Positions 13,168 through 53,878 are shown, counted from the stretch's first letter. The stretch: 64,000 nt of DNA from an uncultured Candidatus Saccharibacteria bacterium (GCA_964355655.1 CAYHDT010000002.1:15598-79597), one strand, 5' to 3'. Notes: generated by a model from the sequence alone, not told the origin. Program-made: numbers and translations.

Positions 13168-14379
13168 ATGTTTCTGGGGGATAAGAAAATATCACGCAAA
13201 CCTAAAGTGTTTGTAGGTTTAAGCGGCGGGGTGGACTCGGCTGTTTCAGCCGCTTTGCTGCAAAAAGAGGGCTACAATGTGACCGGCGTTTTTATACGCA
13301 TCGCAATCGACGGCTACCCGTGTACCGCCGGAGAAGACAAGCTTGACGCCATGCGTGTCGCGGCGCATTTAAAAATACCTTTTCGTACAATTGATTTGTC
13401 GGAAGAGTACAAAAAGAAAGTTTTTGATATTTCAATAAAAGAATTTGAGAAGGGGAGAACCCCAAACCCCGATGCGTTGTGTAACCGTGAAATAAAATTT
13501 GGCCTCTTCTTCGACTGGTGTATGGAGCAGGGCGCCGCCTTGGTCGCTACGGGGCATTATGCGCAAATTGCTCCAGCAAAATCTGTCCAGAAAAAGGTCC
13601 TCGGGTCTCCTGTCTCGGCCAAGACGGAAGAGGCCGGCAGGCCAGACCATTTTTCTAAACAGATTTTGCTTCTGGCTGGTGCAGATCCCGACAAGGACCA
13701 GTCTTACTTCTTGTGGGCCGTACCCGAAACAAAGCTGCGTAAAACGCTGTTTCCTGTCGGGAATTTAACTAAGCCGGAGGTGCGCAAACTGGCGACAGCG
13801 TTTGGTCTGCCGAATGCCGCTCGGAAAGACAGTCAGGGACTCTGTTTTCTTGGGCCTGTATCGATGGACGATATGCTCCGGCAGGAACTAGCACTTGTCC
13901 CCGGTGATGTGATTGATATGCAAGGCGCCCCCATAGGCCGGCACGAAGGCGCGGCCGCCTATACGCTCGGCCAGCGGCACGGGTTTGAGCTTAATGCTCA
14001 TACTCCCGATATTCGACCTCACTTTGTGGTGGCAAAAAATGTCGCGGCAAACACTATTACCGTGTCTACCGAGCGGTTTCCTCAATCTGCGACAGAAACA
14101 CAAATCGAGTTAAGCGATACTAATTGGATAGGGCCTTACTCCGCTGAAGCTACGGAGGGCAAAAAGCTTGCAGCAAGGTATCGTTATCGGCAAAAGCTTA
14201 TTCCGGCTGAGGTAGATTTTGACAAAAGCATCGTTACACTTTTTGAGCCGCACTTTGTGCCGGAAGGCCAGTCGCTTGTTTTGTACGACGGGCAGCGGTG
14301 TCTCGGCGGCGGTGTTATACTAACTGCCAAGTATGGCGATATTCATCGCGAAAGCGGACGGCACGCAAGAGCCGTATAA
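13168..14379 (+). CDS. mnmA: tRNA-specific 2-thiouridylase MnmA
   Basis: PP-loop VFVGLSGGVDSAVSA, catalytic CNREIKF region, and GLCFLG motif. Start chosen at MFLGDKK. Confidence 0.9.
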   Translation: MFLGDKKISRKPKVFVGLSGGVDSAVSAALLQKEGYNVTGVFIRIAIDGYPCTAGEDKLDAMRVAAHLKIPFRTIDLSEEYKKKVFDISIKEFEKGRTPNPDALCNREIKFGLFFDWCMEQGAALVATGHYAQIAPAKSVQKKVLGSPVSAKTEEAGRPDHFSKQILLLAGADPDKDQSYFLWAVPETKLRKTLFPVGNLTKPEVRKLATAFGLPNAARKDSQGLCFLGPVSMDDMLRQELALVPGDVIDMQGAPIGRHEGAAAYTLGQRHGFELNAHTPDIRPHFVVAKNVAANTITVSTERFPQSATETQIELSDTNWIGPYSAEATEGKKLAARYRYRQKLIPAEVDFDKSIVTLFEPHFVPEGQSLVLYDGQRCLGGGVILTAKYGDIHRESGRHARAV

Positions 14380-20904: not shown

Positions 20905-21660
20905 ATGGCAATCTATAAGGGTTCGACGGCGCAATGCCTCCGGCATTTCGCCCAGGCCGACTTTGAGGGCGATAAGCGGCGGGCGCTTATGGAGTTTGCC
21001 GGCGTTACGGCCAATTCCACAATCCGTCGCTGGCTCAACCAGGGGGAACTCCCTGCCGGGGAGCAGCTTCTGCGGATGCGCCATTACCTCGAACATCTGG
21101 GCTACGAAGTAACCGAGCTCCGCAAGCTCACGCCGTCTGTGCGCGAACTCGGGCGCCTCATTGCGTTCAACGTGCTTCCGATTGCGCAAGCCGCGGCAAG
21201 GATAGGCGTCCCTCCCGCCAAGAAGGGGGGCGGACAGCTCACGACCATCCTCTTGGGCGGTCAAGGAGTTTCGTCCGAGCGGAACAGCAGAATCGCAGCG
21301 CTTAATGCGGAGTTCAGCGACCTGCTCAAGAAGCAAGTCGCAAAAGTTCCGCATCTCACGCTTCGCGGTAGCAATAGCGCCGGCCCCGCTTCGGTGTCAG
21401 TACACCGTGCCGATCCGACTGTTCAAACGGAACAGCCTATCGACAAAGACAGCCTGATGAAAGGCTTTGCGCATATGGTGCAAGGGCTGCTTCATCAGTC
21501 GGACTTCATGCTTTCGGATGCCTTTACGGCAGACGACAGGGACAAAGTTCGGCAACTAACCGGAGGGGACGGGATATTCCTCCTTTCCAACCGACTCAAC
21601 CGTCTTTGCGGCGAGCGTGCTCGCCGCGAGATATCCAACGCTTCGGGAGACAACAAATGA
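20905..21660 (+). CDS. XRE-like HTH domain protein (251 aa)
   Basis: HTH-like segment LMEFAGVTANSTIRRWLNQGELPAGEQLLRMRHYLEHLGY. Its stop overlaps the next start (ATGA). Confidence 0.5.
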   Translation: MAIYKGSTAQCLRHFAQADFEGDKRRALMEFAGVTANSTIRRWLNQGELPAGEQLLRMRHYLEHLGYEVTELRKLTPSVRELGRLIAFNVLPIAQAAARIGVPPAKKGGGQLTTILLGGQGVSSERNSRIAALNAEFSDLLKKQVAKVPHLTLRGSNSAGPASVSVHRADPTVQTEQPIDKDSLMKGFAHMVQGLLHQSDFMLSDAFTADDRDKVRQLTGGDGIFLLSNRLNRLCGERARREISNASGDNK

Positions 21661-23348
21661 CGAAGAACACCAGCGAGGTGAACTTCAGCCAAGGAAGGGC
21701 TCTTTGCAAGATTGCAGGGGAATACCCGACTTTGTATGAAGTCATTATGGAGTCAGTACAAAACGCCATTGACGCGGGCGCGACCGACATCGAAATCTTG
21801 CTCAATCGCAAGAACTGCAACATCGTCATCCACGACAATGGCTGCGGCGTCGGCATGGCCGACTTTCAAAACGCGCTCAATCGCGTCTGCGAGTCGGTTA
21901 AGGAGCGGGGCAAGCTCGGCCAGTTCGGCATCGGGCTTATCTCGCCTCTCGGCAAATGCGCACGCTTTACCTTCACCTCTTGTCCGAAGGGTCTTGCGGC
22001 GCCGTATGTCGAGTGGACTTTCGAGACCGAGAAAATCCGCGAGCAGTCCGACCAGGTTACCGTGCCTCATCGGACGCGCAACGACCTCGTGCATGTCTCC
22101 GGACATGGTGGCGGCCATCGGCGCGGGATTACCCCCGTTGAATGGCGGACCGAGGTCGCGATCTACGGCTACACCAAGGACAAGGTCGTCAACCGCATCC
22201 AAGGTGCCGACGCTTTGCTTGAAGGCATTACCGAGCGTTATGGCGCCGCCATGCGGCGCAATGATGTCAAAGTCGGTATCGCCATTATCAACGAGGACGG
22301 CACCCAGGATCTGAAGACCGGCAAGGCCAAACGGTGGAGCGGAAAGAAGCTGGAAGAAAGAAAGGTCAACAACTATCACGGAGGCGACACCACCGTCCGG
22401 CTCTACCTGGCCAAGAAAACCGACAAAGGCTATCAAGGCCAGGTCATGATGGGCGAGGCGGACAACGACTTCCGTATTCGTCTCTCTCAGTTCGGCAAGT
22501 CTGCAGGGCAGCTTATCGACGCTGATGTCGTCGAGGTGCTGTCTTCCGGAATTTTTGAGGGGGAAATCCTCACTCAAAAAGCCCGGCTGCATGAGAACCG
22601 GCGCAGCTTCGTCCAAAACGAAGGCCTGCTCGGCTTCTGCGAGGGTATCGACGAGTGGTTTCGCCAGCACGGCAAACGCTACTACGACGATGCTCAGGAG
22701 CAGCAGGAGGACCAGCGCTACCAGGACTTGGGGCTGCGGTCGATGAAGAACATCGAGTCGCTGCTCCGCGATCCGATGTTCGCTGATGTGCTGGATGTCG
22801 TCGGCAAGTTCAAGCGCGGCAGCATCGGCGATGGCCATCAGGCCCCCGCCGGCGCCTCCGTCTTGGGCAAGCAGAAGGAGAAGTCGATTGCAATCGGAGG
22901 AAACCCCAACGGCCATGAGGGCTCCGATACAAAAGAGCGTCAGCCGGCTGAGAATCTATCGAACCATCATCCCTATACGGTCGCCGGTCCAAGTGGCCGG
23001 CACCGCACTGTGGTGAAGTCCGACAGTCTCGGCCTGCAGTTCTCCCACACCGCTATGGAAGGGTCGGATAAGTTGTTCGTGCTGGATACCCTCAACGGCA
23101 TCCTGCACTTCAACATCCGACATCCGATATGGGTGGCGTGTGACCGCGATGGCAAGGGCAACCGGGAGATCATGCAGCTCCAGGAATTCGTCACCATTCA
23201 GGCCCTCCTTTTGGAGACCCGGCCGGACGAATGGCGAAAAGTCAACGACTTCTATGTCGAAGACATGCTCAAGCCGATGGCGCACCTCATTTGCATGAGC
23301 GGCGCCTATCGGGTTATCGGCCGTCCAGCCAAGGCTGCCGAGAATTGA
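21658..23348 (+). CDS. GHKL-superfamily ATPase (HATPase_c / MORC-MutL-Hsp90-like Bergerat fold), 563 aa
   Basis: N-box ESVQNAIDAG, G1 box DNGCGVG, G2 box GQFGIG. The C-terminal roughly 350 aa are uncharacterised. Translationally coupled to the upstream HTH gene. Confidence 0.7.
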
Positions 23349-24028: not shown

Positions 24029-25867
24029 ATGACTCCGAATGAGGTTCGCAGGAAATACTTGGAATTTTTTAAAGCGCGCGGGCATGTGGTCATCCCGTCG
24101 GCCCCCTTGGTGCCCGAAAACGACCCGACGACGCTGTTTACCAGTTCCGGTATGCAACCGCTGGTGCCATATCTCCTCGGACAAAAACACCCGTCCGGCA
24201 AGCGCTTGGTGGACCTGCAAAAGTCGGTCCGTACCGGCGATATAGAAGAAGTGGGAGACAATCGGCACCTGACTTTTTTTGAAATGTTCGGAAACTGGTC
24301 CTTGGGCGACTATTTTAAACAGGAACAACTGCCGTGGGTATTTGAACTTTTGACTAAAGAATTAAATCTCGATGAAAAACGTTTGTGGGTGACTTGTTTT
24401 GAGGGCGATGCGTCGCTTAGCATACCTAAAGACACCGAGTCCGCGGAGATATGGAAAAGTCTCGGGATTCCGGAGGAACGCATACATTTTTACAATGCCA
24501 AGAAAAATTGGTGGAGCCGAAGTGGTACGCCGGATAAGATGCCTGTCGGCGAACCAGGCGGGCCGGATTCTGAAGTGTTTTATGAATTTACGCATATCGA
24601 ACATAAGCCGGAGTTTGGCGAGCGGTGCCACCCAAACTGTGACTGCGGCCGGTTTGTCGAGATAGGCAACTCCGTATTTATGGAGTACATAAAAAAAGAA
24701 GACGGCTCTTTTGGAAAGCTGGCCCAGCGCAATGTCGATTTTGGCGGCGGATTTGAACGCCTGGCGGCCGCTATCAATAACAGCGACGATGCATACGCCA
24801 CCGGCGCTTTGCAGTCTGAAATTAAAAAGCTCGAGGAGTGGTCGGGCAAAAAATACAGCGACCCGCAATATATAAAAGCTTTCCGGGTTGTTGCAGACCA
24901 CGTGCGCGCGGCGGTGTTTTTGATAGGGGACGGCGTGCGACCGGGCAATGTCGAGCGTGGGTATGTGGTGCGCCGACTCCTGCGCCGCGCGGTGCGGTTT
25001 TCCGATGTGTTGGAAGTGCCCGCTGGCAATTTAAAAAATCTGGTCTCTCTTGTCGCTGAAGATTACAAAGCCAGCTACATCAATATCACCGAGCAGTCCG
25101 CAAACATAACTCAGGAAATAGGGCAGGAAGAGGAACAATTTAGAAAAACGTTGGAGCGCGGGATGAAGGAGTTAGCACGGTTTATTCAAGGTGGTTCGCT
25201 TTCTGCGCGAGACACATTCCAACTGGTGACAACCTATGGCTTTCCCATAGAGCTTATTGCCGAAGAGGCGGGGCTGAAGGGGATTAAACAAATAGATTTT
25301 GAAGGTTTTAAAGAATTGCTCAAAGAACACCAAAATCTTAGCCGCGCGGGGAGCGAGCAGAAGTTTAAGGGCGGCTTGGCTGATACTAGTGAGAAGACGA
25401 CACGCTTGCATACCGCGCACCACCTTCTGCTTAAAGCCCTCCAGCAGGTGCTGGGGCCCGAAGTTCATCAGCGGGGCTCTAACATCACACAAGAAAGATT
25501 GCGCATAGACTTTAGTTACGGGCAAAAGATGACCCCGGAACAAAAGGCCGAGGTGGAGCGCATCGTGAACGAAAAAATTAAAGAAGATTTACCAGTGGTG
25601 CGTACCGAGATGGCTCTTGCCGAGGCGGAAAAGTTGCATGCCGAGCACGAGTTTGGCGCAAAATATCCGGAACGTGTATCAGTTTATTCTGTCGGTCCGC
25701 TGGACAACGCTTTTTCGATAGAATTTTGCGGCGGCCCGCATGTGTCCAGTACGGGTGAGCTCAGTAAGTCAGACTTACTGGGGAAGTCTGACTTACTGAA
25801 GTTTAGGATTTTGAAAGAAGAAGCGGTGGCCCAAGGCGTGCGTCGGATCAAGGCAATACTCCAATAA
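24029..25867 (+). CDS. alaS: Alanyl-tRNA synthetase, short form (catalytic, tRNA-binding and editing domains; no C-Ala domain)
   Basis: KYLEFFKARGHVVIPSAPLVPENDPTTLFTSSGM N-terminus. Editing-domain HxxxH (HTAHHLL) and CGGPHV. Only 612 aa. Confidence 0.9.
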   Translation: MTPNEVRRKYLEFFKARGHVVIPSAPLVPENDPTTLFTSSGMQPLVPYLLGQKHPSGKRLVDLQKSVRTGDIEEVGDNRHLTFFEMFGNWSLGDYFKQEQLPWVFELLTKELNLDEKRLWVTCFEGDASLSIPKDTESAEIWKSLGIPEERIHFYNAKKNWWSRSGTPDKMPVGEPGGPDSEVFYEFTHIEHKPEFGERCHPNCDCGRFVEIGNSVFMEYIKKEDGSFGKLAQRNVDFGGGFERLAAAINNSDDAYATGALQSEIKKLEEWSGKKYSDPQYIKAFRVVADHVRAAVFLIGDGVRPGNVERGYVVRRLLRRAVRFSDVLEVPAGNLKNLVSLVAEDYKASYINITEQSANITQEIGQEEEQFRKTLERGMKELARFIQGGSLSARDTFQLVTTYGFPIELIAEEAGLKGIKQIDFEGFKELLKEHQNLSRAGSEQKFKGGLADTSEKTTRLHTAHHLLLKALQQVLGPEVHQRGSNITQERLRIDFSYGQKMTPEQKAEVERIVNEKIKEDLPVVRTEMALAEAEKLHAEHEFGAKYPERVSVYSVGPLDNAFSIEFCGGPHVSSTGELSKSDLLGKSDLLKFRILKEEAVAQGVRRIKAILQ

Positions 25868-26584: not shown

Positions 26585-27991
26585 ATGGCCCCTCAGGCCG
26601 CTACCACGCTTACCAAGGGCGGATTCGCTGAGTCGCAAGTCTCGCTTGCGGCGATGGAAACCGCGATGGCCGGCTTTGAACGGACGACACTGGCTGATCT
26701 GCTGACACAGCAGGAAACGCTGGTGAAACAATCCAACGAAGTCGCTCAGCTCGATGATGCGGGCGTGCGCGCGGCGCGCCAGGAGATCATCGACTCCAAT
26801 ATGGAAAAGCTCGCCGCAAAGATCGCCGCATACCGCGACGATACGGCCGAGCTCATCGCCGGACTCGAAGCTCAGTTCGAAAAGCTCGGAATGGATTTCT
26901 CGAACTTGCAGAAGCCGACGGCCGAGGACCTGCAACTCATGCAGACGGCTGAAACCTATCTGAAGCAGCTCGTGGAACTCGACGGTCCGACGGCCCGTGC
27001 GCTCTTGGTTCAGGCTATCGCCGACGCCAAAGGCAGTTGGAACCCGATCGGCAGGGACGCGCGCGTTCTTGACGCGGAAAAAGCTCTCGAGGCGTTTGAC
27101 ATCCAACAGGCGACGGATGTCGTCGCGGCTAAGACCGCCGTGGAAGAGACCAAGGCCGAAGTCCAACGGTTGCGCAATAAGCGCATTCGTGAAGCCGAGT
27201 TTGACTCGCAGTTCGAACGCTTTATCGCGTTCGCGCAGCAGATCATGCAGAAGCTTCTTGAAAACGTCCGCAACAGCGAGGTGCGGATGAGCGAGACCCA
27301 GAAGGCCTTCAACGATTCCCTTGTCCAAAAGGAGAAAAAGGCCGCTCAACTCAATAACCTGGACGTCAAGATCAAGCAGGCCGAAGACGCCGTCATGACG
27401 CTCCAGACAGAGCTGGGCAGTGCCGTCGATCAAGAAGCACGCGCACGTGTGGAAACCCGCTTGGGTGCGGCGAACCAAATCCTCGCCGATCTCAACGGCA
27501 CGAAGCAAGAGACTCAAGTGGCCCACAACGCCCTTGAGGCTGCTGCCTCCAAGCACGAGAAGATGCTGGCGACCCTGCAGGTGCAGCGCGACAATCAGCG
27601 GGCACATGCGGTCAAGCTGAACATCGACTCGAGGTCGCGGTTCACCCAGGCGCAAAATATCGTCAGGATTATCCAGAACACCACGCAAGAAGACGCCGCT
27701 TCGCGGCTTCATGTTGCCGGTTCGTCTCTGGACAAGATCGGTCTGGAGCTCTCGGTGCGGGCGCTTATCGCGTCTGAACGGGAGCGGCTGAAGATGCTGA
27801 CCGGTCATGAGGCCGATATGAAGCGGTTCGACGTGATCGGCGGTGCCCTCGCAGAGGGCCGCGCGCAGATCGCCATCGAAGACGCGGAGATCGCGGCTCG
27901 TATGCGTCAAAACTACGGCATCGATCCGCTCAAGGCCAGTTGGCTCCATGTTGCAGAGGGTATGGGCAACTCCGGCAATCCGCCAGCTTAA
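26585..27991 (+). CDS. Coiled-coil protein (468 aa), hypothetical
   Basis: Ala/Glu/Gln/Lys-rich with heptad-like periodicity throughout. The antisense ORF 26528-27949 is rejected as a shadow ORF. Confidence 0.6.
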   Translation: MAPQAATTLTKGGFAESQVSLAAMETAMAGFERTTLADLLTQQETLVKQSNEVAQLDDAGVRAARQEIIDSNMEKLAAKIAAYRDDTAELIAGLEAQFEKLGMDFSNLQKPTAEDLQLMQTAETYLKQLVELDGPTARALLVQAIADAKGSWNPIGRDARVLDAEKALEAFDIQQATDVVAAKTAVEETKAEVQRLRNKRIREAEFDSQFERFIAFAQQIMQKLLENVRNSEVRMSETQKAFNDSLVQKEKKAAQLNNLDVKIKQAEDAVMTLQTELGSAVDQEARARVETRLGAANQILADLNGTKQETQVAHNALEAAASKHEKMLATLQVQRDNQRAHAVKLNIDSRSRFTQAQNIVRIIQNTTQEDAASRLHVAGSSLDKIGLELSVRALIASERERLKMLTGHEADMKRFDVIGGALAEGRAQIAIEDAEIAARMRQNYGIDPLKASWLHVAEGMGNSGNPPA

Positions 27992-28029
27992 CCCGCTTCG
28001 TAACAGGGTTACGCACTACTTATCTACAA

Positions 28030-28058
28030 GGGCGCCGGATCCCCGGCGCCCTTTTTTC
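28030..28058 (+). terminator. Intrinsic terminator
   Basis: GGGCGCCGGatccCCGGCGCCC followed by TTTTTT. Confidence 0.75.
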
Positions 28059-28089
28059 TCTCCCGGCTAGAACTAGAAAGGAAAAGACC

Positions 28090-29172
28090 GTGCAAACTCA
28101 AAATAATGACGCGGTGCTTTTGGTCAATACCGGCGATGGACGCTACGCGCGTTACTTTGCCGAACTTGGCCGAGCACTCGGCATGGTCTCGTCTTGGGCT
28201 AAGCAGTGGTCCGGAGGGACGCTTGACGCATCCCAACACACAGACTATCTGCGCGGCCTTGTAGCATGCTTTAACATGCTACAGAGCCGGTTCAATTTCG
28301 AGACCAGCGACCCACTCATGGTGGATCTGTCCAACTCCGGATTTCCGCACGGCTATATGTTGGCGCGGATAGCGGCAGATAGGGCGGAGGCAACAGCCGA
28401 GCATCTCAAAGGAGACGCTTTCGGTCCGACCCAGCTCAAGCAGGTCTTCTTAGACGACTTGTTTGCGAGCGGCTCGGTTAACCAAGCGCTGCTCAACAGG
28501 ATCGCGTGCGCCAAATATGCCGAGGTGGTAACCGCCATGGACGTGGCGTTCGACCCTCGGTTTATGTGCGGTAAACCGCAAAACGGGACCGCTGATAAGC
28601 GGTACCGACTGCAGTGGAGCACGTTCGACCCGGCGCTTAATCTGCCGGTGTTGTGCGGCATGATCTTCGAATACGGAGGGCTCGATTTAACCCGGACCCT
28701 TGAGGGATTGAAGCTCGTGCTTAAGTATGAGACCAAGGCCGGAGTCTCGGTCGCGGCGCTCGCGCACAACATCGACACCGGTGTTGCGGATATCCGCGTT
28801 ATTGCCCTTAGTCGGGCAATCATGGGTCCTCTGCATTTGCCCGGCCTTACCGATCAAAGCGCTCCGTGCGCATTACCGAGCGTCAAGCTCGGGGAGGATA
28901 TCGTGGTTGATATAACCGTCGATCATACTCATTCGGTAAGCATCAAAAAGCCGACCACGCTTGCGGTGCGGTTTGGAGTAAGTCCGGCCGAACAACAAGT
29001 GTACTCGATTCGCACCGCAGATCCGCTGTGCTACATGCGGGGAGCGGATGCGGTCGAACGTATCGTTATCCTGCCGCACCGCATGCTGCAAGGCATGTCT
29101 GCGGCGGACAAACAAGACAGCATGGGCGAGTTTACGCTCGTGCCTTACATCAAGGAAGGAGAACTTCAGTGA
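28090..29172 (+). CDS. Hypothetical protein (about 360 aa), first gene of a three-gene operon
   Basis: GTG start 8 nt after an AAAGGAAAAG RBS. No recognisable domain. Its stop overlaps the next start (GTGA). Confidence 0.5.
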   Translation: MQTQNNDAVLLVNTGDGRYARYFAELGRALGMVSSWAKQWSGGTLDASQHTDYLRGLVACFNMLQSRFNFETSDPLMVDLSNSGFPHGYMLARIAADRAEATAEHLKGDAFGPTQLKQVFLDDLFASGSVNQALLNRIACAKYAEVVTAMDVAFDPRFMCGKPQNGTADKRYRLQWSTFDPALNLPVLCGMIFEYGGLDLTRTLEGLKLVLKYETKAGVSVAALAHNIDTGVADIRVIALSRAIMGPLHLPGLTDQSAPCALPSVKLGEDIVVDITVDHTHSVSIKKPTTLAVRFGVSPAEQQVYSIRTADPLCYMRGADAVERIVILPHRMLQGMSAADKQDSMGEFTLVPYIKEGELQ

Positions 29173-31091
29173 ACGGGAGCTCACGAGTGGAGATCAAGGA
29201 GAAGCAAATCGCAGAAAAACTGCGTAATGCCGACTCCTTGGTAACGAAAGCGGAGTGGCAGCCGCGAGCAAGTGCTCCTCCTCCGGGGGAGTTACATCGC
29301 CAGCGGTTGCTCAACCAAGTGCAACCGATGCCCAGCGCCTCGCTCCAAGAGAGCCTCAAGCTTGTCCGCAAAGACGGCTCGGCTATCTTGGGCGGCATGG
29401 AACATCGAGTGCTGCATGGAGTCCGTCACGGCATCCAGATAGCTCTGGCTGCGGCGGACGAATATCGGCGTCTGACCGGCATCGATCAGATGGGCGACCT
29501 CTCAAACCTGAGTACGGATAAACGGTCCGAGATTCAGGACAAGATGCGCACTGCGTCAGCCATCGTGCTCTTTACGCTGGCGCGCTTCGTCGAGGAAGGT
29601 CTCGGTGAAGTCAGTGACGAGGACGCGCACCGGGAGCACGTAATGCTTCCGGAATGCGTCTTCGACGAGCCGATTACAGCCCTGCGCTGTATCATCTTCT
29701 ATCTGTGTGCCAACCTCGCACACCCGAAGGTTAACAACGACAAGGCCCTCGGGGCTACGGTAGGAGTCTTCTTCGAGAAGGTCATAAGCGAGATTGAAAC
29801 CCGCAAAGCGACCTTCATGCACCTCGAGCAGTTCCAAGCGATCTCATTCGGGGTCGAAGGGAGCGAGTTCACGATCGAGGGACTTGTGCGCCACGACACC
29901 GGTGTCGTGAGCGTGGAATTTAAACGGAAAGAGCTTTCCGAAAACGTCGGCAATGCCGACGCCAAGCACTTCATTCGGCGCCTTGCGCGCCGTTTGGTAA
30001 GCTATAATCCGAAAGAAAAGAAAAATGTCTTCATGGAATTGGGCGGTATTATGGACCCGTGGATGGGCTACGGCAAGCCGGGTACCGGCAAGTCGGACCT
30101 CATCGCGATCCTTGCGACCATGCTCGATGATCTGTGCAAGGCGCGTAAAATACCGTTCCTGTTCAATCCGTTGCCGGACAATCTGATCGATTCGTATCAG
30201 GGCAACTCGGCCCGAAACATGGTCAAGTGGATGCTGCAGATGCAGGCGACCGATAAGATCGTCTACGCATCTATCGACGACGCCGAAAACGTACTCGAGG
30301 AGAGGACCCGTCAGGGCGTCTCCGAAGGTGTGCGTGCCGTTATCGGAGTGTTCCTCCGCTATACGGAAGGCGCCTATGCGATACGCCGGGGCAACTCGAC
30401 GATCGGCATCATGACCAATCTGCCCGAGCAGCTCGACGCAGCCGTTCGCTCCCGGGTACAGGGACGGATGGTCATCGACGGCTTTAAAACTGTCGAGGAT
30501 GCGCTCGATCAGTCTCATCTGTGGTGGAAGAAGCGGTACGGCGGACAAGAAGGATTCGTAAATCTCAAGGACCCCACCGCTTACATGTATCAGAGCGCCC
30601 AAAAGGAGCTCAAATCCGCCGCCGAGGCAGCGCAGACCCGCGACTCTCCGGAGCACGGGATTATGAAAGATATCTTTGAGCGCGTGCTCAAGGAAAACGA
30701 CCCCGAAAGCCACGAGTTCATTGCAAAATGGATGGTGGCGGTCATGGAACGGTACCCCGCGTTCTCTTCGCGAGACATGCGGAATATCCACTCCGCGGTG
30801 GACCTTCGCGTCATGGATTTCGATATCCCCGACCGTTGGTTCGAACCCGCGACACTGGGTGAGTTTCATGACCAGCCGTACGAGCAACAGCTGGGGATGG
30901 TCAAAGAACTTCGCACCGCCAATATGAAGGGGCTGAAGTTTGGCGACATGCTCCGGCAGGAAAGCGTGCGGTATCTCGACAACTACGCTCTGATTGCCGA
31001 TGCGCAATTCGACCGCGAGGTCGACGAGCGCATCAAGCAAATCCGGATCGAGCAGGAAGTCGAAAGACGTCTGCGGCAAAAAGCCGCGTAA
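29169..31091 (+). CDS. Classical-clade AAA+ ATPase with a long N-terminal extension (about 640 aa)
   Basis: Walker A GYGKPGTGKS, Walker B IVYASIDDAE, sensor-1 IMTN, SRH-like LDAAVRSRVQGRMVIDGF. GTG start overlapping the upstream stop. Confidence 0.65.
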   Translation: MNGSSRVEIKEKQIAEKLRNADSLVTKAEWQPRASAPPPGELHRQRLLNQVQPMPSASLQESLKLVRKDGSAILGGMEHRVLHGVRHGIQIALAAADEYRRLTGIDQMGDLSNLSTDKRSEIQDKMRTASAIVLFTLARFVEEGLGEVSDEDAHREHVMLPECVFDEPITALRCIIFYLCANLAHPKVNNDKALGATVGVFFEKVISEIETRKATFMHLEQFQAISFGVEGSEFTIEGLVRHDTGVVSVEFKRKELSENVGNADAKHFIRRLARRLVSYNPKEKKNVFMELGGIMDPWMGYGKPGTGKSDLIAILATMLDDLCKARKIPFLFNPLPDNLIDSYQGNSARNMVKWMLQMQATDKIVYASIDDAENVLEERTRQGVSEGVRAVIGVFLRYTEGAYAIRRGNSTIGIMTNLPEQLDAAVRSRVQGRMVIDGFKTVEDALDQSHLWWKKRYGGQEGFVNLKDPTAYMYQSAQKELKSAAEAAQTRDSPEHGIMKDIFERVLKENDPESHEFIAKWMVAVMERYPAFSSRDMRNIHSAVDLRVMDFDIPDRWFEPATLGEFHDQPYEQQLGMVKELRTANMKGLKFGDMLRQESVRYLDNYALIADAQFDREVDERIKQIRIEQEVERRLRQKAA

Positions 31092-31106
31092 GAAAGGGAG
31101 CCAAGC

Positions 31107-32372
31107 ATGCCCATCATGCATGAGCTTATCGAAGCGGGGTTGTTCGGCCGGGGACTTATCCCGGTCGACAACCCGATTCTGGTGGCGCGCTACAACGCGT
31201 GCCTCAAGGACATGGGTCTTGTGCCCACGCGATTGAAGCGTTTCCAGCTCGACAAAATGGGCTGGAGCCCCGAAATAGCGGCCGAGCAAGGCCATGATTA
31301 TTATCTATCGCACGGGGACGCAAATCCTCTTGCGATAGTGTTGGTCCCCGAGCAGAGCAGCTCGAAAGTCCCCATCTATTATCCGTTCCACTCGTACGAT
31401 TGGGATCTGATGGGAGCCTGGGGTACCGCAAACCGGACACCTATCTTCGAGTTAACCAAGGACACGGCGATCTGGCTCGATATTGATCAAGAAGTTGATC
31501 TTTATCAGACGCCGGCAGATCTGCGCAGTGTATATGAAGTTATCGTGCGTGCACACACGCCCGACAACATCATCGGAAAAGCTATCGAACAGCGTGATCT
31601 GGTTACCGAGTTCATCCGCAAGGAGGATTCGCATCAGGATATGGCGCTGATCGAGAAAATCCGGGATAGCCGCGAACGGGTCGGGGACCTCCAAAACCGG
31701 AGTCTCATAATCCGAGACTACACTTTTACCGACGTGCGCAACTTCTACTCGCGTGCGTTCGGCGGAGTGTTCGTACTCCGTTCTAGAGACGGCGAGGCTC
31801 TAATCTTCTGCCGCGACCCGAAGGTCGCCAAGAAGCATGGTCTCCTCGTGGCAAACACGAGCGCGCTCGATACGCTTATCGAACACGGGTATGCCGAGCG
31901 AGATACCGCCTGGTGGAGGGACAATCTCTATCGCCTGCGGATCATTGCGGAGTCGTTTCTGATGGAGGTGCTGGACGAAGAGGAACCGGAACTTGAGTTT
32001 CTCTCGCTTAATCGGGCGGAACAAAAGGCCGTCGTTCAAAAGTACGGTGACCAGCTCGGGATGTATGTGCAGCTCAACCGCTTAATTCGAACACTCGAGC
32101 AAGGCAAAGAACCTGCTGCGGTGCCGCCGGCAGTGGCCGACCTTCTGGTGCATCCGTCTCATGACCTGACTCCCGTATCGCGGGAAGTCGTGGGACAACT
32201 GCTTTCGTATATTTACGGCGGCAGGCTGGTACCGCTCTTCTACAGGCACCAGAAGACGGCGTTCGTCTCCAAGTACACACGGGTTTGGAAGACCCCTCGC
32301 AGACAGTGGGCCCTGGAACGCATCCGGGAGCACTACGATCTCGCAAGCAAGTCCTCCAACATCCCTTCGTAG
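31107..32372 (+). CDS. Hypothetical protein (421 aa), last gene of the operon
   Basis: AAGGGAG RBS. A weak GxxG...LDID arrangement, not convincing as a nucleotidyltransferase. Confidence 0.5.
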   Translation: MPIMHELIEAGLFGRGLIPVDNPILVARYNACLKDMGLVPTRLKRFQLDKMGWSPEIAAEQGHDYYLSHGDANPLAIVLVPEQSSSKVPIYYPFHSYDWDLMGAWGTANRTPIFELTKDTAIWLDIDQEVDLYQTPADLRSVYEVIVRAHTPDNIIGKAIEQRDLVTEFIRKEDSHQDMALIEKIRDSRERVGDLQNRSLIIRDYTFTDVRNFYSRAFGGVFVLRSRDGEALIFCRDPKVAKKHGLLVANTSALDTLIEHGYAERDTAWWRDNLYRLRIIAESFLMEVLDEEEPELEFLSLNRAEQKAVVQKYGDQLGMYVQLNRLIRTLEQGKEPAAVPPAVADLLVHPSHDLTPVSREVVGQLLSYIYGGRLVPLFYRHQKTAFVSKYTRVWKTPRRQWALERIREHYDLASKSSNIPS

Positions 32373-32394
32373 TTCTTTCGTTCCAACAGTCAAA

Positions 32395-32426
32395 CATGGA
32401 AGGTACCCCCTTCCATGTTTTTTTAT
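32395..32426 (+). terminator. Intrinsic terminator
   Basis: CATGGAAGG-taccc-CCTTCCATG followed by TTTTTTTAT. Confidence 0.75.
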
Positions 32427-32511
32427 TATATGGTATAATTGAGGCAGACTAGAAAGCCCAAAAAAGGCTTACGGCTCTTCAAAATATCAAACTCTCACAA
32501 GGAGAAATACG

Positions 32512-33114
32512 ATGATGCTTGCAGCTTTCGGTGCATGGTTTGCCAGTTACTTGGCACCGCTATTGGTGGTGTTTATGGTCGCAGGAGCGATCCTTGAGAT
32601 CGCGGACCGCTATATTGGCGTTCCGTTCTACCGATGGTACTACAACCGCGGCGACACTCACGGGAAACCGATGCCCGTCGACCAGATGGGCTTCTTCTAC
32701 GGCCGCACACTCAAACAGCAGCACAACCGCGCTCTGTTTCTGTCGGCCGCTCAAAGCGTGCTGGCAGTTTCCTTCGGCAATTACACGCCGTGGGAGATTG
32801 TCGCAGAAATTCCCGCTCTCTTTTTGGAGGGATGGTTCCTGGTTCCGGGCCTGTGGCTCGGAGACAAGATTTTTGTCCACGTCATCAGGCGACAGGATAA
32901 AATCTTCGATGCTCTCGACCACAGGGAGGAAACCGTCAAAAACCTGTTCTCATGGGTGCTTGGCCTTTCTTCGAAATTCCGGAGCATCATTCCAGCGACA
33001 AAGCCTGTCGAGCAACCTCAGCCGCCTGCGTCCGAGGTCACCTCGGCGCCGGCAAAGCCCACGCGGAACATGAGCGCAAAGAGCGTTCTGCAACGTCATT
33101 CCGACGGGAGATAG
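32512..33114 (+). CDS. Membrane protein (200 aa), hypothetical
   Basis: 3-4 TM helices. Pro/Ala-rich C-terminus. Confidence 0.5.
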   Translation: MMLAAFGAWFASYLAPLLVVFMVAGAILEIADRYIGVPFYRWYYNRGDTHGKPMPVDQMGFFYGRTLKQQHNRALFLSAAQSVLAVSFGNYTPWEIVAEIPALFLEGWFLVPGLWLGDKIFVHVIRRQDKIFDALDHREETVKNLFSWVLGLSSKFRSIIPATKPVEQPQPPASEVTSAPAKPTRNMSAKSVLQRHSDGR

Positions 33115-33117
33115 ATG

Positions 33118-34820
33118 TGAACAAAACTGCGCTCGATACCACCGACTGGGAATGGCGCAAGCCGTCTTTCAGAGTCTTTCTTGAAAGTCTCTGGGACGAC
33201 TTCGTGGAATTTCTGCGAAGCAAGTCCTGGCGCGAGTGGCACTGGGGGCTGCGGCTCGCTGTCGCAATACTCATACCGGCCGCTATCGTCAGCGTCTATA
33301 TCTTCCGTTATCTCTGGGAGCCGTATGCATTCTTCGTTCCGCGCATCTATGCCGGAGCGGGTTTACTGGCTCTCGTCTTGACGGTGGGTTGTTGGTTTGG
33401 GATCGGCACCTTCGTTGGGTGGCTGTTTCCTTCATCAAAAGTGCTTGTGCGATATTTGCGGCCGGTCGGAGCCTTGCTCGGGCTGGTGCTCGTACTATCC
33501 GGAGCCGGCTACGCAAAGCCGCTTCATACCTTCTTCTCGCAGTACTGGCGCTTTCAGACGTTGAACATAGTCGAGCCAAAGGTCGACCCTTTGACCGACC
33601 ATGAGCGCATCTGGTCGCTGGACGGAATTCAAACTTTTGTCCGCCGGCAGATGCGTGATACCGAAACGCCTTCGAAAGCACACCTCGTGCGCGAGGGCAG
33701 TGGGTACAACTGGACGATGGGCATCGAGCCCACGACCTGGCTGTTGCAGTACTGGGACCCTGTCGAGGAGGTGGTCAGGATACGTGCCGACATCACCTCC
33801 TTTGATCTGCATCGCGGCAGAAATGCCCGCTTTGCAACGGGGGAGAGCCTCAAGTTCTCGCGCAACATCTACACCTGCGTACAGAGGCGCTTCTGGTTTT
33901 GGAATTCCTTCAGCCACGAAGTCGCCCGCACTACCATGTATCTGAAAAATGATACAGGGAAAGAGGTGCAGGTGGTGCCCATTACTCGTTGGGCGGGCTG
34001 GGCTTTCCCCCGGCGGGAGTTTGGCGGCGTTATGGTCATCGATGAAACTCCTGAGCGGTCCTGGCTGGGTGAGCGTCTCGAAACTCTGAAAAGAGTCTTT
34101 TGGGGATGCGGCACCTGGGTTGGTCCCGACCAAATTGCCTCGTACCTGTACCTCGTGGGCCAAAATCTGGTACCCTTCGAGGTGACCCGCGACATGGCGG
34201 CGAGTCTGCGCTTTAGAAACGGTTTCTTTGCGCCGACTTGGTTTAGGAGAGAGGGTGATATCCGCATCGCGGACATGCCCGACGATCAAAACGAGCAGCC
34301 CTTTACTCTCTTCTTCCACATCCGGAACGACGAGGGCAAGGTGGTTGCTTCGAAGCTTTTCCAGTATGTGGCACTCGAGCCGTACGACTCTGCACACCAG
34401 GGTCACGCGGCCGAGTTTCTGCATCCCGGAGACGGCATCGGGCCGTCGTACGTATTCCAATTTTTCGGCGAGCGGGAGTCGCTTACAGGCGTCACCGCGG
34501 TGCCGGGATGGGTACGGTCGTCAAGGCGGAACTACGATTGGCCAACCAATCTGCCCAATGAGCACCGGCCGTATATCAAGGATATCCCGGACTCTAACGG
34601 CACCGTCAAGACGCGGCGCATGTGGCTGACGGCGGTTGTGACGATTGATAAGGAAAAGTACGACAAGAAGGATCCGAAAGGGTTCATCACCGGCAGTCCG
34701 GATATTGTCATCACCGATGCGCGAAAAAACAAATCGGTGTGGGTCAAGAGTGACAACCCGAAAGACTGGCCGGAGCAGCTGCACAAGGAACTTGGTCCGA
34801 TTTGGGCCGAGAAGCCCTGA
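33118..34820 (+). CDS. Large membrane-anchored hypothetical protein (about 567 aa)
   Basis: GTG start immediately after the upstream stop (TAGATGTG). The alternative ATG 32952 would overlap the upstream gene by 160 nt. Three N-terminal TM helices, then a Trp-rich soluble domain. Confidence 0.45.
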
Positions 34821-34856
34821 AAGCGCAAAGTTCTTTCGTCCGACCTCAAACAGCTG

Positions 34857-34888
34857 GGCGCCTCTACCAAGAGGCGCCTTTTTCTTTT
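34857..34888 (+). terminator. Intrinsic terminator
   Basis: GGCGCCTCtaccaaGAGGCGCC followed by TTTTTCTTTT. Confidence 0.7.
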
Positions 34889-34962
34889 CCTTCAAACGCT
34901 TGTGATTATACGAATTTCTTGTATAATATTTTTAGACGTCATCGTTATTTTAAGGGGGCCAA

Positions 34963-35943
34963 ATGGACTATAGCCAAGGCGGTTTTGAGCGCAACGGGTC
35001 GATATTCCGGCACTTGCGGCTTAAAAAAGAGATGCTCCAACATGCCGACGCCGGCCATCGGGAAATTCGCCCTGTCCTGCTTGGACTGTCAGGAGTTTTC
35101 CGCGGCGTGCGATGCGGGGCACAGCTGAAAGTGCTGCACGACCATGGATACAATGACTCGTTCGACCATGCAGTTGCGGTCTCGACGAGCGCTCCGGCCA
35201 TCGGCTACTCGCTTGCCGGCCAGCCAGCTTTGGGGTTGAGCATTTACTGGGACGAATGCCTTTCGGGCAAATTCATACCCACCCACTATTCGCAGCTGCC
35301 GTGGGAGGTCTTGAAGATGTTTTGGACGAAAGGCAAAGATCCGCTTATGGATATCGAGTATCTTTGCGACGTCTTCCGCGGCAAGGTGTCTAACAAAGCG
35401 CTCGACCAAGAAGCCGCGCGGCGATGCCGTACCCGTTTTTCTGTGGCGGTCACCCGCTGCAACGACGGGGAAGGGATGTTGCTGGACGCTAAAAAAACCA
35501 ATCCGGACATGGTCGAGGCTATCCGAGCTTCGATTGCGGTGCCGGGGGTATCTAATGGCAAGGTGCGCATTGACGGAGTCGAATATATCGACGGCGTCGG
35601 TGCGATGCCCTTCCCGATAGAGCTTATCTTGCGAGAATTGGATCCGACGGATATTTTGGTTTTGGCCAACCGCGCGGAAGACGAGAGTATCCATCTTGTC
35701 GAGCACTTGCTTACCAGTCTGGCGCTCCATTCGGAAGTTGCGCGCGTGCAGGAAGAATTTAGCACGCGCGAAATCCGCTTTGCTCAGAGCCTCGAGCTTT
35801 TGCGCAATTGGAAAGGCCGGTGGGGAATCGTGTGGTGTCCGCCGGATCTTCACGCGGTTGAAGTCAACCCCGACAAGCTCCAGCGCGCGGCAAAAGAAGC
35901 GGAGAGTATTATGACTACACTTTTGCGCCACGAAACTCAGTAA
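34963..35943 (+). CDS. Patatin-like phospholipase (divergent motifs)
   Basis: SGVFRGV (GGxRG-like), AVSTSAPAIG (GxSxG-like with a central Ser), and YIDGVGA (catalytic DGG-like) in the canonical order and spacing. Confidence 0.5.
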   Translation: MDYSQGGFERNGSIFRHLRLKKEMLQHADAGHREIRPVLLGLSGVFRGVRCGAQLKVLHDHGYNDSFDHAVAVSTSAPAIGYSLAGQPALGLSIYWDECLSGKFIPTHYSQLPWEVLKMFWTKGKDPLMDIEYLCDVFRGKVSNKALDQEAARRCRTRFSVAVTRCNDGEGMLLDAKKTNPDMVEAIRASIAVPGVSNGKVRIDGVEYIDGVGAMPFPIELILRELDPTDILVLANRAEDESIHLVEHLLTSLALHSEVARVQEEFSTREIRFAQSLELLRNWKGRWGIVWCPPDLHAVEVNPDKLQRAAKEAESIMTTLLRHETQ

Positions 35944-35953
35944 TTAATATGTA

Positions 35954-35980
35954 TGGCGTCCTCACGGACGCCATTTCTTT
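35954..35980 (+). terminator. Intrinsic terminator
   Basis: TGGCGTCCtcacGGACGCCA followed by TTTCTTT. Confidence 0.6.
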
Positions 35981-51455: not shown

Positions 51456-52742
51456 ATGGAGCGCACTCTTATTGCCGATTTGCAAAACAAAAAAGGGGAG
51501 GCGGTAACCATCCAGGGCTGGGTTAGCGTGCGGCGCGACCAGGGCAAGATGGTATTTTTTGACTTCCGCGACCGCTCGGGCGTGGTACAGGGCGTTACCT
51601 TACCCGCTTCGCCGGCGATAGAAACCGCTAAAGAGGTGCGCAATGAGTACGTGGTTTCGGTCGAAGGCAAGGTCAACGAGCGCCCGGAAAAAAATCGCAA
51701 GGAGGGTGTGCAAAACGGCGATATCGAGTTGGAAGTACTGGGTATAGAAATAATCTCCAAGGCAGAAATTCCGTTTGAGCTGGGCACTGAAGTCAATCTC
51801 GATACGTATCTCGACCACATGCCCTTTACCCTACGGGCAGAAAAGGCGAAGCAGATTTTTAAAGTACAGCAGGCGATAATCGAAGGATTTCGAGAGGGAA
51901 TGAAAGCCCAGGACTTTACCGAATTTCAGGCGCCCGCGCTGGTGGGCGGCGACGCCGAGGGCGGAGCCGCGGCTTTTAAGGTTGACTATTACTACGAGCA
52001 AAAAGCCTACCTAGCAACCAGCCCGCAACTGTACAAACAAATAATGGTGGGTGTTTTTGAAAGGGCTTTTACCACGCCTAAGATATTCCGTGGAGAAAAG
52101 CACGCTACCACGCGCCACCTCAGCGAGTATACATCGCTCGACTTTGAAATGGGTTTTATTAAAGACCATACCGACGTAATGGCCGCGCTGGCGAAGACCA
52201 TGCGAATAATCGTCAAGAAAACGGGTATTGACGTTGCCATACCGGAACAGATTCCTGTATTAAAATTGCGCGAAGTGCAAAAGATACTTGGTGTGGGAGA
52301 GGAGCCCGACCTCGAGCCCGAGCATGAGCGCGCCATTTGCGAGTGGGCGCTGCGTGAGCACAACTCAGATTTTGTGTTTGTGACGCACTACCCCGTCAGC
52401 AAGCGGCCATTCTACACTTACGAAGACGAGGCCGACCCGGGTTTTACCAAAAGTTTTGACCTCCTCTTCCGCGGGCTAGAGATTACGACCGGCGGCCAAC
52501 GCATCCACAACTACGACGCGCTGGTGGCCGCTGCAAAGGCAAAAGGGCTCGACCCAAGCAAGTTTTCTTATTATCTGGAGACGTTTAAAGTCGGCATGCC
52601 GCCGCACGGCGGCTCGGCCACGGGGCTCGAGCGCCTGACCGCCCGCTTGCTTAACCTCCCCAATGTCAAAGAAGCAACTCTCTTCCCCCGCGACCTCAAC
52701 CGCATCGACATCCTCCTCTCGACAGATAAAAAAGAAGAATAA
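51456..52742 (+). CDS. aspS: Aspartyl-tRNA synthetase, archaeal/eukaryal type (probably non-discriminating)
   Basis: N-terminal OB fold. Class II motifs include FRGLEITTGGQRIHN, VGMPPHGGSATGLERL and TLFPRD, which match archaeal-type AspRS rather than AsnRS. Confidence 0.8.
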   Translation: MERTLIADLQNKKGEAVTIQGWVSVRRDQGKMVFFDFRDRSGVVQGVTLPASPAIETAKEVRNEYVVSVEGKVNERPEKNRKEGVQNGDIELEVLGIEIISKAEIPFELGTEVNLDTYLDHMPFTLRAEKAKQIFKVQQAIIEGFREGMKAQDFTEFQAPALVGGDAEGGAAAFKVDYYYEQKAYLATSPQLYKQIMVGVFERAFTTPKIFRGEKHATTRHLSEYTSLDFEMGFIKDHTDVMAALAKTMRIIVKKTGIDVAIPEQIPVLKLREVQKILGVGEEPDLEPEHERAICEWALREHNSDFVFVTHYPVSKRPFYTYEDEADPGFTKSFDLLFRGLEITTGGQRIHNYDALVAAAKAKGLDPSKFSYYLETFKVGMPPHGGSATGLERLTARLLNLPNVKEATLFPRDLNRIDILLSTDKKEE

Positions 52743-52750
52743 ACTTCTAT

Positions 52751-53518
52751 ATGCTTGAAAAAATTTCTTCAACAATCAAAGATTTTTTAGGGGATTCAAA
52801 TGAATTTATCGAATCAGCAACAATAGCCGCGGAAGACAGAATAACTTCCCCTTTTTACGGTTATTTCCTTATTTCCTGGTTTATATTTAACTGGAAAATT
52901 GTATATGTAGCTTTCTTTATTGATCAAACCAAACTTTATGAAAAAACAGGCTTGTTGCGTAATGAATATTTAAATTCTATAATCCCCTCGCACTTGAGTT
53001 GGAATTTTTGGTTCTATTTTGCTATTTGTCCTTTTTTACTGACGGTGTTCTTCTTTTGGATATCACCATATTTTACTCGACATTTCTTTAGGAAAAATAT
53101 CCGGAATAAAAAACAATTAAAAATAATTGAACTCCAAGAAAGTCAGGAGGTAAAGAAAGAGGAAAAGGCTTTAGTAAAAGCTGAAACCGCACTCATTGAA
53201 GAGAAGGTAGAAAAAGTTAAACGCGAAAAAAAAGCTGTAAAAGAAACTCCTGAAGTTATTTGGGAAAATGAATTTGAAATTTTTAGAAAGCACCCAATCT
53301 ATAGTGGAATGGATAGCCTAAAAAAAATACTTTATGAAAGAAGCGGCCTGACACGGGAATGGGATGGTAATCAGTATCGTCTCATGATTAACTCTGATAT
53401 CTTGGCTGCTGCAGACTCAAGAGGGCTAGTAGAAATTCAGGGTAGTGGAAAATTAGAAAAAATTGAACTTACACCAAAAGGAAAATTTTTTATGGCAAAA
53501 TTCTTGGAAGGAAAATAA
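52751..53518 (+). CDS. Hypothetical membrane/coiled-coil protein (255 aa) encoded in low-GC DNA
   Basis: TM helices followed by a Lys/Glu-rich coiled coil. Local GC is about 27-42%. Confidence 0.5.
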   Translation: MLEKISSTIKDFLGDSNEFIESATIAAEDRITSPFYGYFLISWFIFNWKIVYVAFFIDQTKLYEKTGLLRNEYLNSIIPSHLSWNFWFYFAICPFLLTVFFFWISPYFTRHFFRKNIRNKKQLKIIELQESQEVKKEEKALVKAETALIEEKVEKVKREKKAVKETPEVIWENEFEIFRKHPIYSGMDSLKKILYERSGLTREWDGNQYRLMINSDILAAADSRGLVEIQGSGKLEKIELTPKGKFFMAKFLEGK

Positions 53519-53524
53519 CGCCGA

Positions 53525-53878
53525 ATGAAACTCGTGTACAAAACTGCAGCAGAGGGTATATTTCTGCTCCACCTCTGCTTAGTTTTGCTTGTTGTGTTTT
53601 TTGGTTGGTATATACCCGCGCTGTGGCCCTGGTATGTGGCGGCGCTCGTTGCCACACTCGTCTCAGACCTCTTGTTCGGCTACTGCATACTCAGCAAATG
53701 GGAGTTTGATCTACGGCGCAAGGTCAACCCCGACACCGACTACGATTTTGCCTGGGCGACTTACTACACCTACAAAATTACCAACAAACGCATCTCCAAC
53801 GTTTTGTATTGGCGATTATCGATATTCTTTCTAACTGCGTCTCTCGGTATCAGTCTCTACTCCCGTTTTTTTATATAA
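53525..53878 (+). CDS. Small membrane protein (117 aa), hypothetical
   Basis: 3-4 TM helices. Lies in the low-GC insert. Confidence 0.45.
   Translation: MKLVYKTAAEGIFLLHLCLVLLVVFFGWYIPALWPWYVAALVATLVSDLLFGYCILSKWEFDLRRKVNPDTDYDFAWATYYTYKITNKRISNVLYWRLSIFFLTASLGISLYSRFFI

Follow-up and report, generated by a model that had tools for sequence, protein, structure and literature searches.

A six-gene cluster around a classical AAA ATPase in a Saccharibacteria genome and its recurrence in distant bacterial phyla

Layout of the cluster

In a 64,000-nt stretch of DNA from an uncultured Candidatus Saccharibacteria bacterium (GCA_964355655.1, CAYHDT010000002.1:15598-79597), which was analysed at full length and is called the window here, we investigated a gene cluster built around an ATPase of the classical AAA clade. 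The original prediction, made from the DNA sequence alone, had described a three-gene unit at 28090-32372, with products of 360, 640 and 421 amino acids (aa) and with genes coupled by a GTGA overlap and by a 15-nt gap that holds a ribosome-binding site. These details are borne out by the DNA and by the public gene calls; the neighbourhoods conserved in other genomes, however, show that the unit comprises six genes (26585-34879), namely the upstream gene of a coiled-coil protein, the three genes just named and two downstream genes for membrane proteins (Table 1). All coordinates are positions in the window unless another locus is given, and all cluster features lie on the + strand. The products of 468, 360, 640, 421 and 567 aa match, with identical starts, the genes annotated on a public contig of 114,893 bp, and a stretch identical to the locus is also present in a Hainich groundwater metagenome.

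Table 1 Genes and terminator-like hairpins of the six-gene cluster, with the number of related loci in which each protein family was found
Feature	Coordinates	Strand	Description	Loci with family
Coiled-coil protein, 468 aa	26585..27991	+	Open reading frame (ORF); first gene of the conserved cluster; acidic (isoelectric point, pI, 5.3); without transmembrane (TM) segment	81/84
Hairpin and T-run between coiled-coil gene and gene 1	28028..28053	+	Terminator-like; 11-bp stem, 9 G-C
Gene 1, 360 aa	28090..29172	+	Soluble alpha/beta protein, new family; GTG start inside ORF 27940-29172	84/84
AAA ATPase, 640 aa	29169..31091	+	GTG start inside ORF 29028-31091; Pfam AAA	83/84
DUF6638 protein, 421 aa	31107..32372	+	Soluble; ATG start; Pfam PF20343	77/84
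Hairpin and T-run 3' of DUF6638 gene	32392..32420	+	12-bp stem
Small TM protein, 200 aa	32512..33114	+	pI 10.3; N-terminal TM helix or helices and basic cytoplasmic tail (predicted)	70/84
Large TM protein, 567 aa	33117..34820	+	GTG start from public gene call; directly 3' of small TM gene	67/84
Hairpin ending the cluster	34856..34879	+	Terminator-like; 10-bp stem, 7 G-C, T-run

The three central genes are closely coupled. The ribosome-binding-site sequence AAAGGAAAAG lies 5' of the GTG at 28090; at the next junction, GGAAGGAG is followed by caGTGAac, in which the ATPase start codon GTG (29169) overlaps the gene 1 stop codon TGA (29170-29172); and the ATPase stop codon TAA (31089-31091) is followed by AAAGGGAG within the gap to the DUF6638 ATG (31107). 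Across related loci, the median gap at the gene 1/ATPase junction is 12 nt, and that at the junction of the coiled-coil gene with gene 1 is 118 nt. The terminators that had been predicted on both sides of the three genes are indeed there as hairpins, although their coordinates had to be shifted by a few bases (to 28028-28053 and 32392-32420). These two hairpins are the strongest of 17 terminator-like sites in the region (shuffles, 9.0 +/- 3.4). In the closest relative (locus L005), the first of them is not present and the gap is 21 nt, while a near-identical hairpin follows DUF6638 at the same position (13222-13252). The hairpins divide the window cluster into three units: the coiled-coil gene, gene 1-AAA-DUF6638, and the genes for the small and the large TM protein.

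A co-inherited set with exchangeable membrane modules

One genome per species was scanned, 80 loci were fetched, and protein families were counted in 84 loci by iterated searches with hidden Markov models (HMMs). The ATPase is encoded in at least 570 species genomes, and its homologues number in the hundreds, matching over the full length at 40-68% identity. The genes of the four soluble proteins (coiled-coil protein, gene 1 product, ATPase and DUF6638 protein) stand in the same order in Patescibacteria, Flavobacteriaceae, Verrucomicrobiota, one Pseudobdellovibrionaceae genome, Rhizobiaceae and Vibrio megaplasmids. Altogether the cluster recurs in at least five bacterial phyla, which settles the question, raised by the original prediction, of whether the genes keep company outside this genome. 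The complete order (genes for ~450-500 aa, ~350-370 aa, AAA, DUF6638, a small and a large product) is found in Flavivirga (Bacteroidota), Pelagicoccus (Verrucomicrobiota) and Candidatus Yonathbacteria, and gene order is also kept in 80 further genomes, plus Sinorhizobium and Vibrio.

All loci in which the coiled-coil gene (3 loci) or DUF6638 is absent are explained by contig ends, and co-occurrence reaches 100% where the contig suffices. The coiled-coil gene, previously noted as a separately terminated neighbour just upstream, is strongly linked to the others. The four soluble proteins form a strictly co-inherited set in fixed order across distant phyla. In 38 loci, nearly all of them from Flavobacteriaceae, the same ABC-F gene lies upstream of the cluster, a syntenic chromosomal site that argues for vertical inheritance at a fixed position. 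The cluster is retained in the small genomes of Patescibacteria, and a search of 2.9 million viral contigs gave no relatives of either the ATPase or DUF6638.

One of two membrane modules comes after the four soluble genes in nearly all loci. Type A, found in the window, is predicted to consist of a small protein with three TM helices and a second three-TM protein with a large outside domain. Type B combines small TM proteins with DUF2333, for which one TM helix, an N-in orientation and an outside domain are predicted; it occurs in Yonathbacteria, Moraniibacteria and one Pseudobdellovibrionaceae genome, and also in Sinorhizobium meliloti. Profile comparison with hhalign gave no relationship between the 567-aa protein and DUF2333, or between the two kinds of small TM protein, so that two unrelated modules occupy the same position after DUF6638. 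Iterated HMM searches connect the 200-aa protein of the window with the ~175-aa gene that occupies its place in 70 loci; its predicted cytoplasmic tail is basic, with a conserved basic end. The 567-aa protein, which has no Pfam or PDB match, is predicted to be N-in with three TM helices and a ~440-aa extracytoplasmic domain, and this domain is highly conserved, with many invariant residues. No recognisable channel family was found among the membrane proteins.

Some clusters contain additional genes. In 26 Flavobacteriaceae loci, an inserted NUDIX hydrolase gene (193-230 aa) has a constant place, with the AAA gene on one side and DUF6638 on the other (e.g., L001, 9949-10557), and in a Pseudomonas fluorescens locus a DUF2333 gene adjoins a NUDIX gene (PMC5256989). 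These NUDIX neighbours may reflect a functional link to a nucleotide-diphosphate compound. Flavobacteriaceae clusters also hold numerous small inserts (examples in L010, 13792-14145; L024, 3674-4072; L015, 11740-12438). Those that encode four-helix proteins of the 23S rRNA intervening-sequence type and GIY-YIG endonucleases look like selfish elements; in three Kordia-type loci, the insert is a signal peptidase S26 gene.

Apparent gene fusions did not enter the evidence. A 768-aa fusion of the coiled-coil protein with gene 1 (L039) was rejected as a scaffold-gap artefact marked by a run of X, and a 1021-aa gene 1-AAA fusion (L060), which comes from a metagenome-assembled genome and is unconfirmed, was set aside. 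In protein P0133 (L085, 9001-11199; 732 aa), residues 1-375 of coiled-coil type are joined to a complete DUF2333. This gene stands alone between murG and gltX, with neither gene 1 nor AAA nor DUF6638 beside it, and in our interpretation it is what a deletion left over from a type B cluster; we do not take it for a Rosetta-stone fusion. The window has its own mraY-ftsW-murG-gltX block (58988-63604), which contains no such fusion gene.

Features of the encoded proteins

The 640-aa protein matches Pfam AAA (PF00004) with 35.1 bits (cutoff 21.2; E 2.2e-8), as do all 10 aligned members of its family (10/10; best E 2.4e-11). Its assignment to the classical clade by Walker A, Walker B and the arginines of the second region of homology (SRH) holds, given this match and the conservation of the motifs. 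The Walker A motif reads GxPGTGK[ST], with the lysine in 204/204 members; pore loop 1 reads [F/Y]QG, with QG in 204/204 and the aromatic residue in 203/204; sensor-1 is TN, its asparagine again in 204/204; and the SRH arginines R429 and R433 are present in 204/204 and 202/204 members, respectively. A lid motif, FSSRDxRN, is found at the place of the G-x-S-G-A-D of other classical AAA proteins. The ATPase thus retains all the motifs required to bind ATP, to let subunits communicate and to thread a substrate. One divergent member (L088, 6926-8830) has a GNGKT Walker A, GDE replacing DDAE in Walker B and a KMQGES pore loop, which may help in telling which of the acidic residues is the catalytic one.

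The family is built from an N-terminal extension of ~250-290 aa, a single AAA core and a conserved C-terminal region of ~170 aa. The window protein has this extension, first estimated at 300 aa or so, and neither the extension nor the C-terminal region matched anything. Its neighbours in the PDB are all substrate-threading classical AAA proteins. When a profile of the AAA core was searched against the PDB, AFG2, Cdc48, VAT, p97 and Rpt4 came out on top (E 1e-17 to 1e-12) and Vps4 lay outside the best 60, whereas a phmmer search with the single sequence had Vps4/SKD1 as its best match (E 2.3e-6), with Rpt subunits, katanin and fidgetin-like 1 next in rank; a profile of the full-length protein found no PDB match. 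In the alignment with Vps4, the pore loop SYQGNSA pairs with SKWLGESE, and the SRH region LDAAVRSRVQGRMVI with LDSAIRRRFEKRIYI. A Vps4-like MIT domain had been suggested as something to look for, and in 10 members the sequence models for MIT (PF04212), Vps4_C and AAA_lid_3 gave no match at E<=1. The ATPase is not an FtsH or CbbX orthologue, the identity that would have spoken against the original prediction, because no TM segment is predicted and no Peptidase_M41, FtsH, CbbX or SpoVK model matches. The sole NCBIfam match is IteA, at 14 bits against a cutoff of 510. As far as sequence comparison can place it, the protein represents a distinct lineage of the classical AAA clade that is neither FtsH nor CbbX and not demonstrably Vps4.

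The coiled-coil protein, for which a sequence search gave 14 close homologues, belongs to a family of 360-536 aa with an invariant YGID motif near the C-terminus. It is acidic throughout, with a net charge of zero or below in all 40-residue blocks but one, and no signal peptide is predicted. The original prediction had likened its pairing with the ATPase to membrane-remodelling pairs of the ESCRT-III/Vps4 or PspA kind. Proteins of the ESCRT-III/PspA type are shorter, at ~220-260 aa, and their N-terminal core is basic while the C-terminal part is acidic. Homology to them receives no sequence support: in 15 coiled-coil members there was no match to Snf7 (PF03357), PspA_IM30 (PF04012) or TelA at E<=1, and the family profile retrieved generic coiled coils only from the PDB (E<=10), with no ESCRT-III, PspA or Vipp1 among them. 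A relationship to ESCRT-III that shows in structure alone may nevertheless exist.

The statement that none of the three proteins has a recognisable family needs correction for the 421-aa protein, which matches DUF6638 (PF20343) over residues 16-411 with 103.4 bits (cutoff 27; E 1.7e-29), as do 120 of its 120 listed homologues. The coiled-coil protein, gene 1 and the two downstream ORFs have no Pfam, NCBIfam, PHROG or PADLOC family. Gene 1 defines a family of 142 cluster representatives (176-415 aa, most of them 340-415 aa) with a nearly invariant SGFP motif and no extra domains. AlphaFold (AF2) models of both proteins are confident, with a predicted local distance difference test score (pLDDT) of 91.7 and a predicted template modelling score (pTM) of 0.90 for gene 1, and 94.2 and 0.89, respectively, for DUF6638. 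In Foldseek searches of the PDB, the gene 1 model had no significant match; the best (E 0.07) was GTP cyclohydrolase I. Its ββααββ T-fold is similar in topology to residues ~170-290 of the gene 1 model, a likeness that may serve as a lead only. The DUF6638 model matched neither the PDB (best E 1, TM-score ~0.1) nor the viral models in BFVD, and hhalign gave no relationship between gene 1 and DUF6638. A Cys-His-Asp triad hinted at by 16 DUF6638 sequences was gone in an alignment of 96 and was dropped. In a Desulfobacterales locus (L087, 2074-3961), DUF6638 occurs without the ATPase, beside a DUF3786 gene and among sensor kinases.

Several other features of the window were recorded. Directly after the cluster follows an unrelated patatin-like phospholipase gene (34963-35943, +), which has a promoter-like site (34900-34927) and a terminator (35953-35974) to itself; a patatin gene adjoins the cluster in 0/84 related loci. 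Upstream, a 580-aa GHKL ATPase (20905-23348, +; HATPase_c_3, with weak similarity to MutL, sacsin and MzaB) follows an unassigned gene for 251 aa, and the two could be a MORC-like or defence-type pair. Between this ATPase and the cluster lie genes for a 167-aa basic protein and for an alanyl-tRNA synthetase of the short form (24029-25867, +; 612 aa, PRK01584 type). This short form, best hits in Patescibacteria/Saccharibacteria and the groundwater source together indicate a genome-reduced organism of the CPR type. The leucyl-tRNA synthetase (5612-8452, +; 946 aa) shows an unusual combination of domains, in that an inserted NUDIX domain (residues 384-500) follows its editing domain. At 52001-54000, G+C drops to 0.43 from ~0.53-0.55 elsewhere, in a segment that spans the end of a class II tRNA synthetase gene of the Asp/Asn/Lys type and an unassigned 255-aa gene (52751-53518). 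No tRNA genes were found in the whole 64 kb.

Possible functions and comparison with known systems

Our preferred reading, held tentatively and with less than even confidence, is that the cluster encodes a membrane-coupled AAA machine for remodelling or maintenance of the envelope or membrane; its mechanism is one that we infer. On the cytoplasmic side of the membrane, the ATPase would form a hexamer and pull on a protein substrate by means of its [F/Y]QG pore loops. As for the acidic coiled-coil protein, it could be the substrate itself, or else a scaffold or polymer that undergoes assembly and disassembly; its gene appears often to be transcribed apart from the others, and the protein might be made in excess. 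Gene 1 and DUF6638 would act as adaptors or regulators of the ATPase, the basic cytoplasmic tail of the small TM protein would anchor the soluble parts, and the large outside domain (or DUF2333) would sense or act on the envelope. Such a machine would follow a logic like that of Psp or ESCRT-III/Vps4 with unrelated proteins. It is supported by the predicted topology, which puts the large domains of both modules outside and the basic tail of the small protein inside. Further points in its favour are the conserved gene order and complete co-occurrence, the close coupling of gene 1 to the ATPase gene, the conserved motifs and the substrate-threading PDB neighbours of the ATPase, the shared position of two unrelated membrane modules, the syntenic site beside the ABC-F gene, the lack of viral relatives and of a PADLOC system match, and the retention in small Patescibacteria genomes.

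Other observations weigh against this reading. In 203/204 members, Walker B consists of DD followed by A-E-N instead of the usual DE. The catalytic acidic residue would be D371 or E373, both candidates by sequence, and a DD Walker B may mean slow hydrolysis or a switch-like ATPase instead of a processive unfoldase. The roles given to gene 1 and DUF6638 are guesses, since the two match no known fold. The Vibrio megaplasmids carry the four soluble genes only, with no adjoining membrane module. Finally, conflict systems, too, typically combine swappable membrane modules with a patchy phyletic distribution. In a broader form that we regard as possible but doubtful, the cluster would be an unrecognised, ancient or widely transferred ATP-driven system that remodels and repairs the membrane or envelope. 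Its function would parallel that of ESCRT-III/Vps4 and Psp, but its folds, among them a new coiled-coil family, would be unrelated to theirs, and interchangeable TM modules would report or act on the outside.

An anti-phage or conflict system, with the soluble core as the sensor of infection and with a swappable membrane effector that is activated by the ATPase and leads to death or arrest of the cell, would account for two unrelated membrane modules behind a constant core, for the scattered distribution over distant phyla and for the presence on Vibrio megaplasmids. The ATPase has an IetA-like P-loop match, albeit a weak one, and the window neighbours include the GHKL ATPase with MzaB similarity and the patatin gene. 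Housekeeping genes and terminators, however, stand between these neighbours and the cluster. The check for defence systems returned only the IetA match in PADLOC, confined to about 50 P-loop residues (18.9 bits), with no match at the level of a system. The cluster holds no nuclease, protease, NADase or other toxin domain; its large, highly conserved outside domains are unlike typical small TM effectors; and the shared site next to the ABC-F gene and the lack of relatives in viral contigs also speak against such a role, which we consider unlikely.

We assign a similarly low probability to a machine that would export, insert or extract proteins, along the lines of Msp1, FtsH, Bcs1 or EccA. Here the ATPase would unfold a client, either the coiled-coil protein or the tail of a membrane protein, and pass it to, or pull it from, a two-protein channel. 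The intact aromatic pore loops fit this proposal, as do the unfoldases that are the nearest relatives, the two multi-TM partners (the small one with its conserved basic end on the cytoplasmic tail) and the signal peptidase gene of the Kordia-type loci. Yet the ATPase has neither a TM anchor nor a protease domain, the coiled-coil protein lacks a signal peptide, and the membrane proteins offer only 3+3 TM helices, even fewer in type B, and fall into no channel family that could be recognised. A true bacterial homologue of an ESCRT-III/Vps4 or PspA pair, with a membrane-polymerising coiled-coil partner and a Vps4-orthologous ATPase bearing an MIT-like N-domain, is very improbable: the single-sequence PDB search, the Vps4 alignment and the strict co-inheritance of the coiled-coil partner are set against the core profile, the missing MIT, Vps4_C, AAA_lid_3, Snf7, PspA_IM30 and TelA matches, a partner that is too long and has no basic N-terminal half, and published transfers of bacterial Vps4-like proteins, which pair with a TPR+6TM protein and not with this cluster (PMC11237479).

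The rest of the probability goes to functions that nobody has yet thought of. The cluster would be of interest under any of these readings. The ATPase forms a separate lineage conserved over its full length in hundreds of species, from Gram-negative phyla to the cell-wall-poor, genome-reduced Patescibacteria. To our knowledge, bacterial classical AAA ATPases have nearly all been assigned to a few jobs (FtsH, Clp, CbbX, SpoVK, EccA). Five of the six cluster proteins are without a characterised relative, and two have confident models for which Foldseek found no PDB match. Should it prove to remodel or repair the membrane, the cluster would join Psp/Vipp1 and ESCRT-III/Vps4 as an independent third solution; if it serves defence or export instead, it would still be a new machine. 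These predictions are directly testable, as the cluster is present in Sinorhizobium meliloti and in cultivable marine Flavobacteriaceae.

Existing literature offers few leads. A full-text search found no paper on DUF6638 or on the cluster and one passing mention of DUF2333, and literature on bacterial Vps4 and on S. meliloti locus tags gave no functional information. In S. meliloti, the cluster is located between tdk/choX and fhs and probably corresponds to SMc02730-SMc02735. In array data from a phosphatidylcholine-deficient S. meliloti mutant, SMc02730 and SMc02735, tags whose assignment to the cluster is unconfirmed, show negligible change. A fragment bound by the envelope-stress regulator ChvI is reported to lie inside S. 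meliloti SMc02733 (PMC3687685), which by gene order is probably the ATPase gene of the cluster (L089, 4955-6871), the numbering being unconfirmed.

Among known systems, the classical AAA unfoldases (Cdc48/p97/VAT, AFG2/Drg1, Rpt subunits, Vps4, katanin) share with the cluster ATPase the GxPGTGKS Walker A, the aromatic-x-Gly pore loop 1, the sensor-1 asparagine and the SRH arginine, and its FSSRD corresponds to their GAD-like lid motif. Identity is ~20-25% and limited to the large subdomain; Walker B is DE in the unfoldases but DD(A)E in the cluster ATPase, which has a single AAA domain with family-specific termini. The IetAS system resembles the cluster in the weak IetA match of the ATPase alone (residues 299-352; PADLOC-DB 2.0); the other five proteins have no match, and the cluster has no IetS-like protease partner. 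DUF6638 and DUF2333 (PF10095) are family names without a function, and the type A module of the window has no Pfam family at all.

The closest parallels in organisation are ESCRT-III/Vps4, including archaeal CdvB/CdvC, and Psp. Like the former, the cluster places a classical AAA gene beside a strictly co-inherited gene for a helical coiled-coil protein, and it adds membrane proteins. It differs in several respects: no MIT or Vps4_C was found; the coiled-coil partner, acidic throughout and of double the length, gives no Snf7 or PspA signal; and two further obligatory soluble proteins (gene 1 and DUF6638) have no counterpart in ESCRT-III/Vps4. With Psp (PspA, PspB/PspC, PspF), it agrees in outline: in both, an AAA+ protein is encoded together with small TM proteins and with a coiled-coil protein of the cytoplasm, and a Psp-like role in envelope stress is plausible. 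PspF, however, is a sigma-54 enhancer-binding AAA+ protein with a helix-turn-helix domain and not a classical-clade AAA protein, and no PspA_IM30, PspB or PspC signal was found in the cluster. A survey of Psp systems describes other associations of AAA proteins with PspA/Snf7, and none of its novel Psp partners matches the cluster (PMC11237479). In conclusion, the motor is of an ordinary enzyme kind and the system around it matches no known one; the domain, family, length and charge features of Psp or ESCRT-III/Vps4 that were probed by sequence turned out negative, the rank of Vps4 among the relatives of the ATPase differed between searches, and what the cluster appears to have in common with both is a parts list and a plausible logic.

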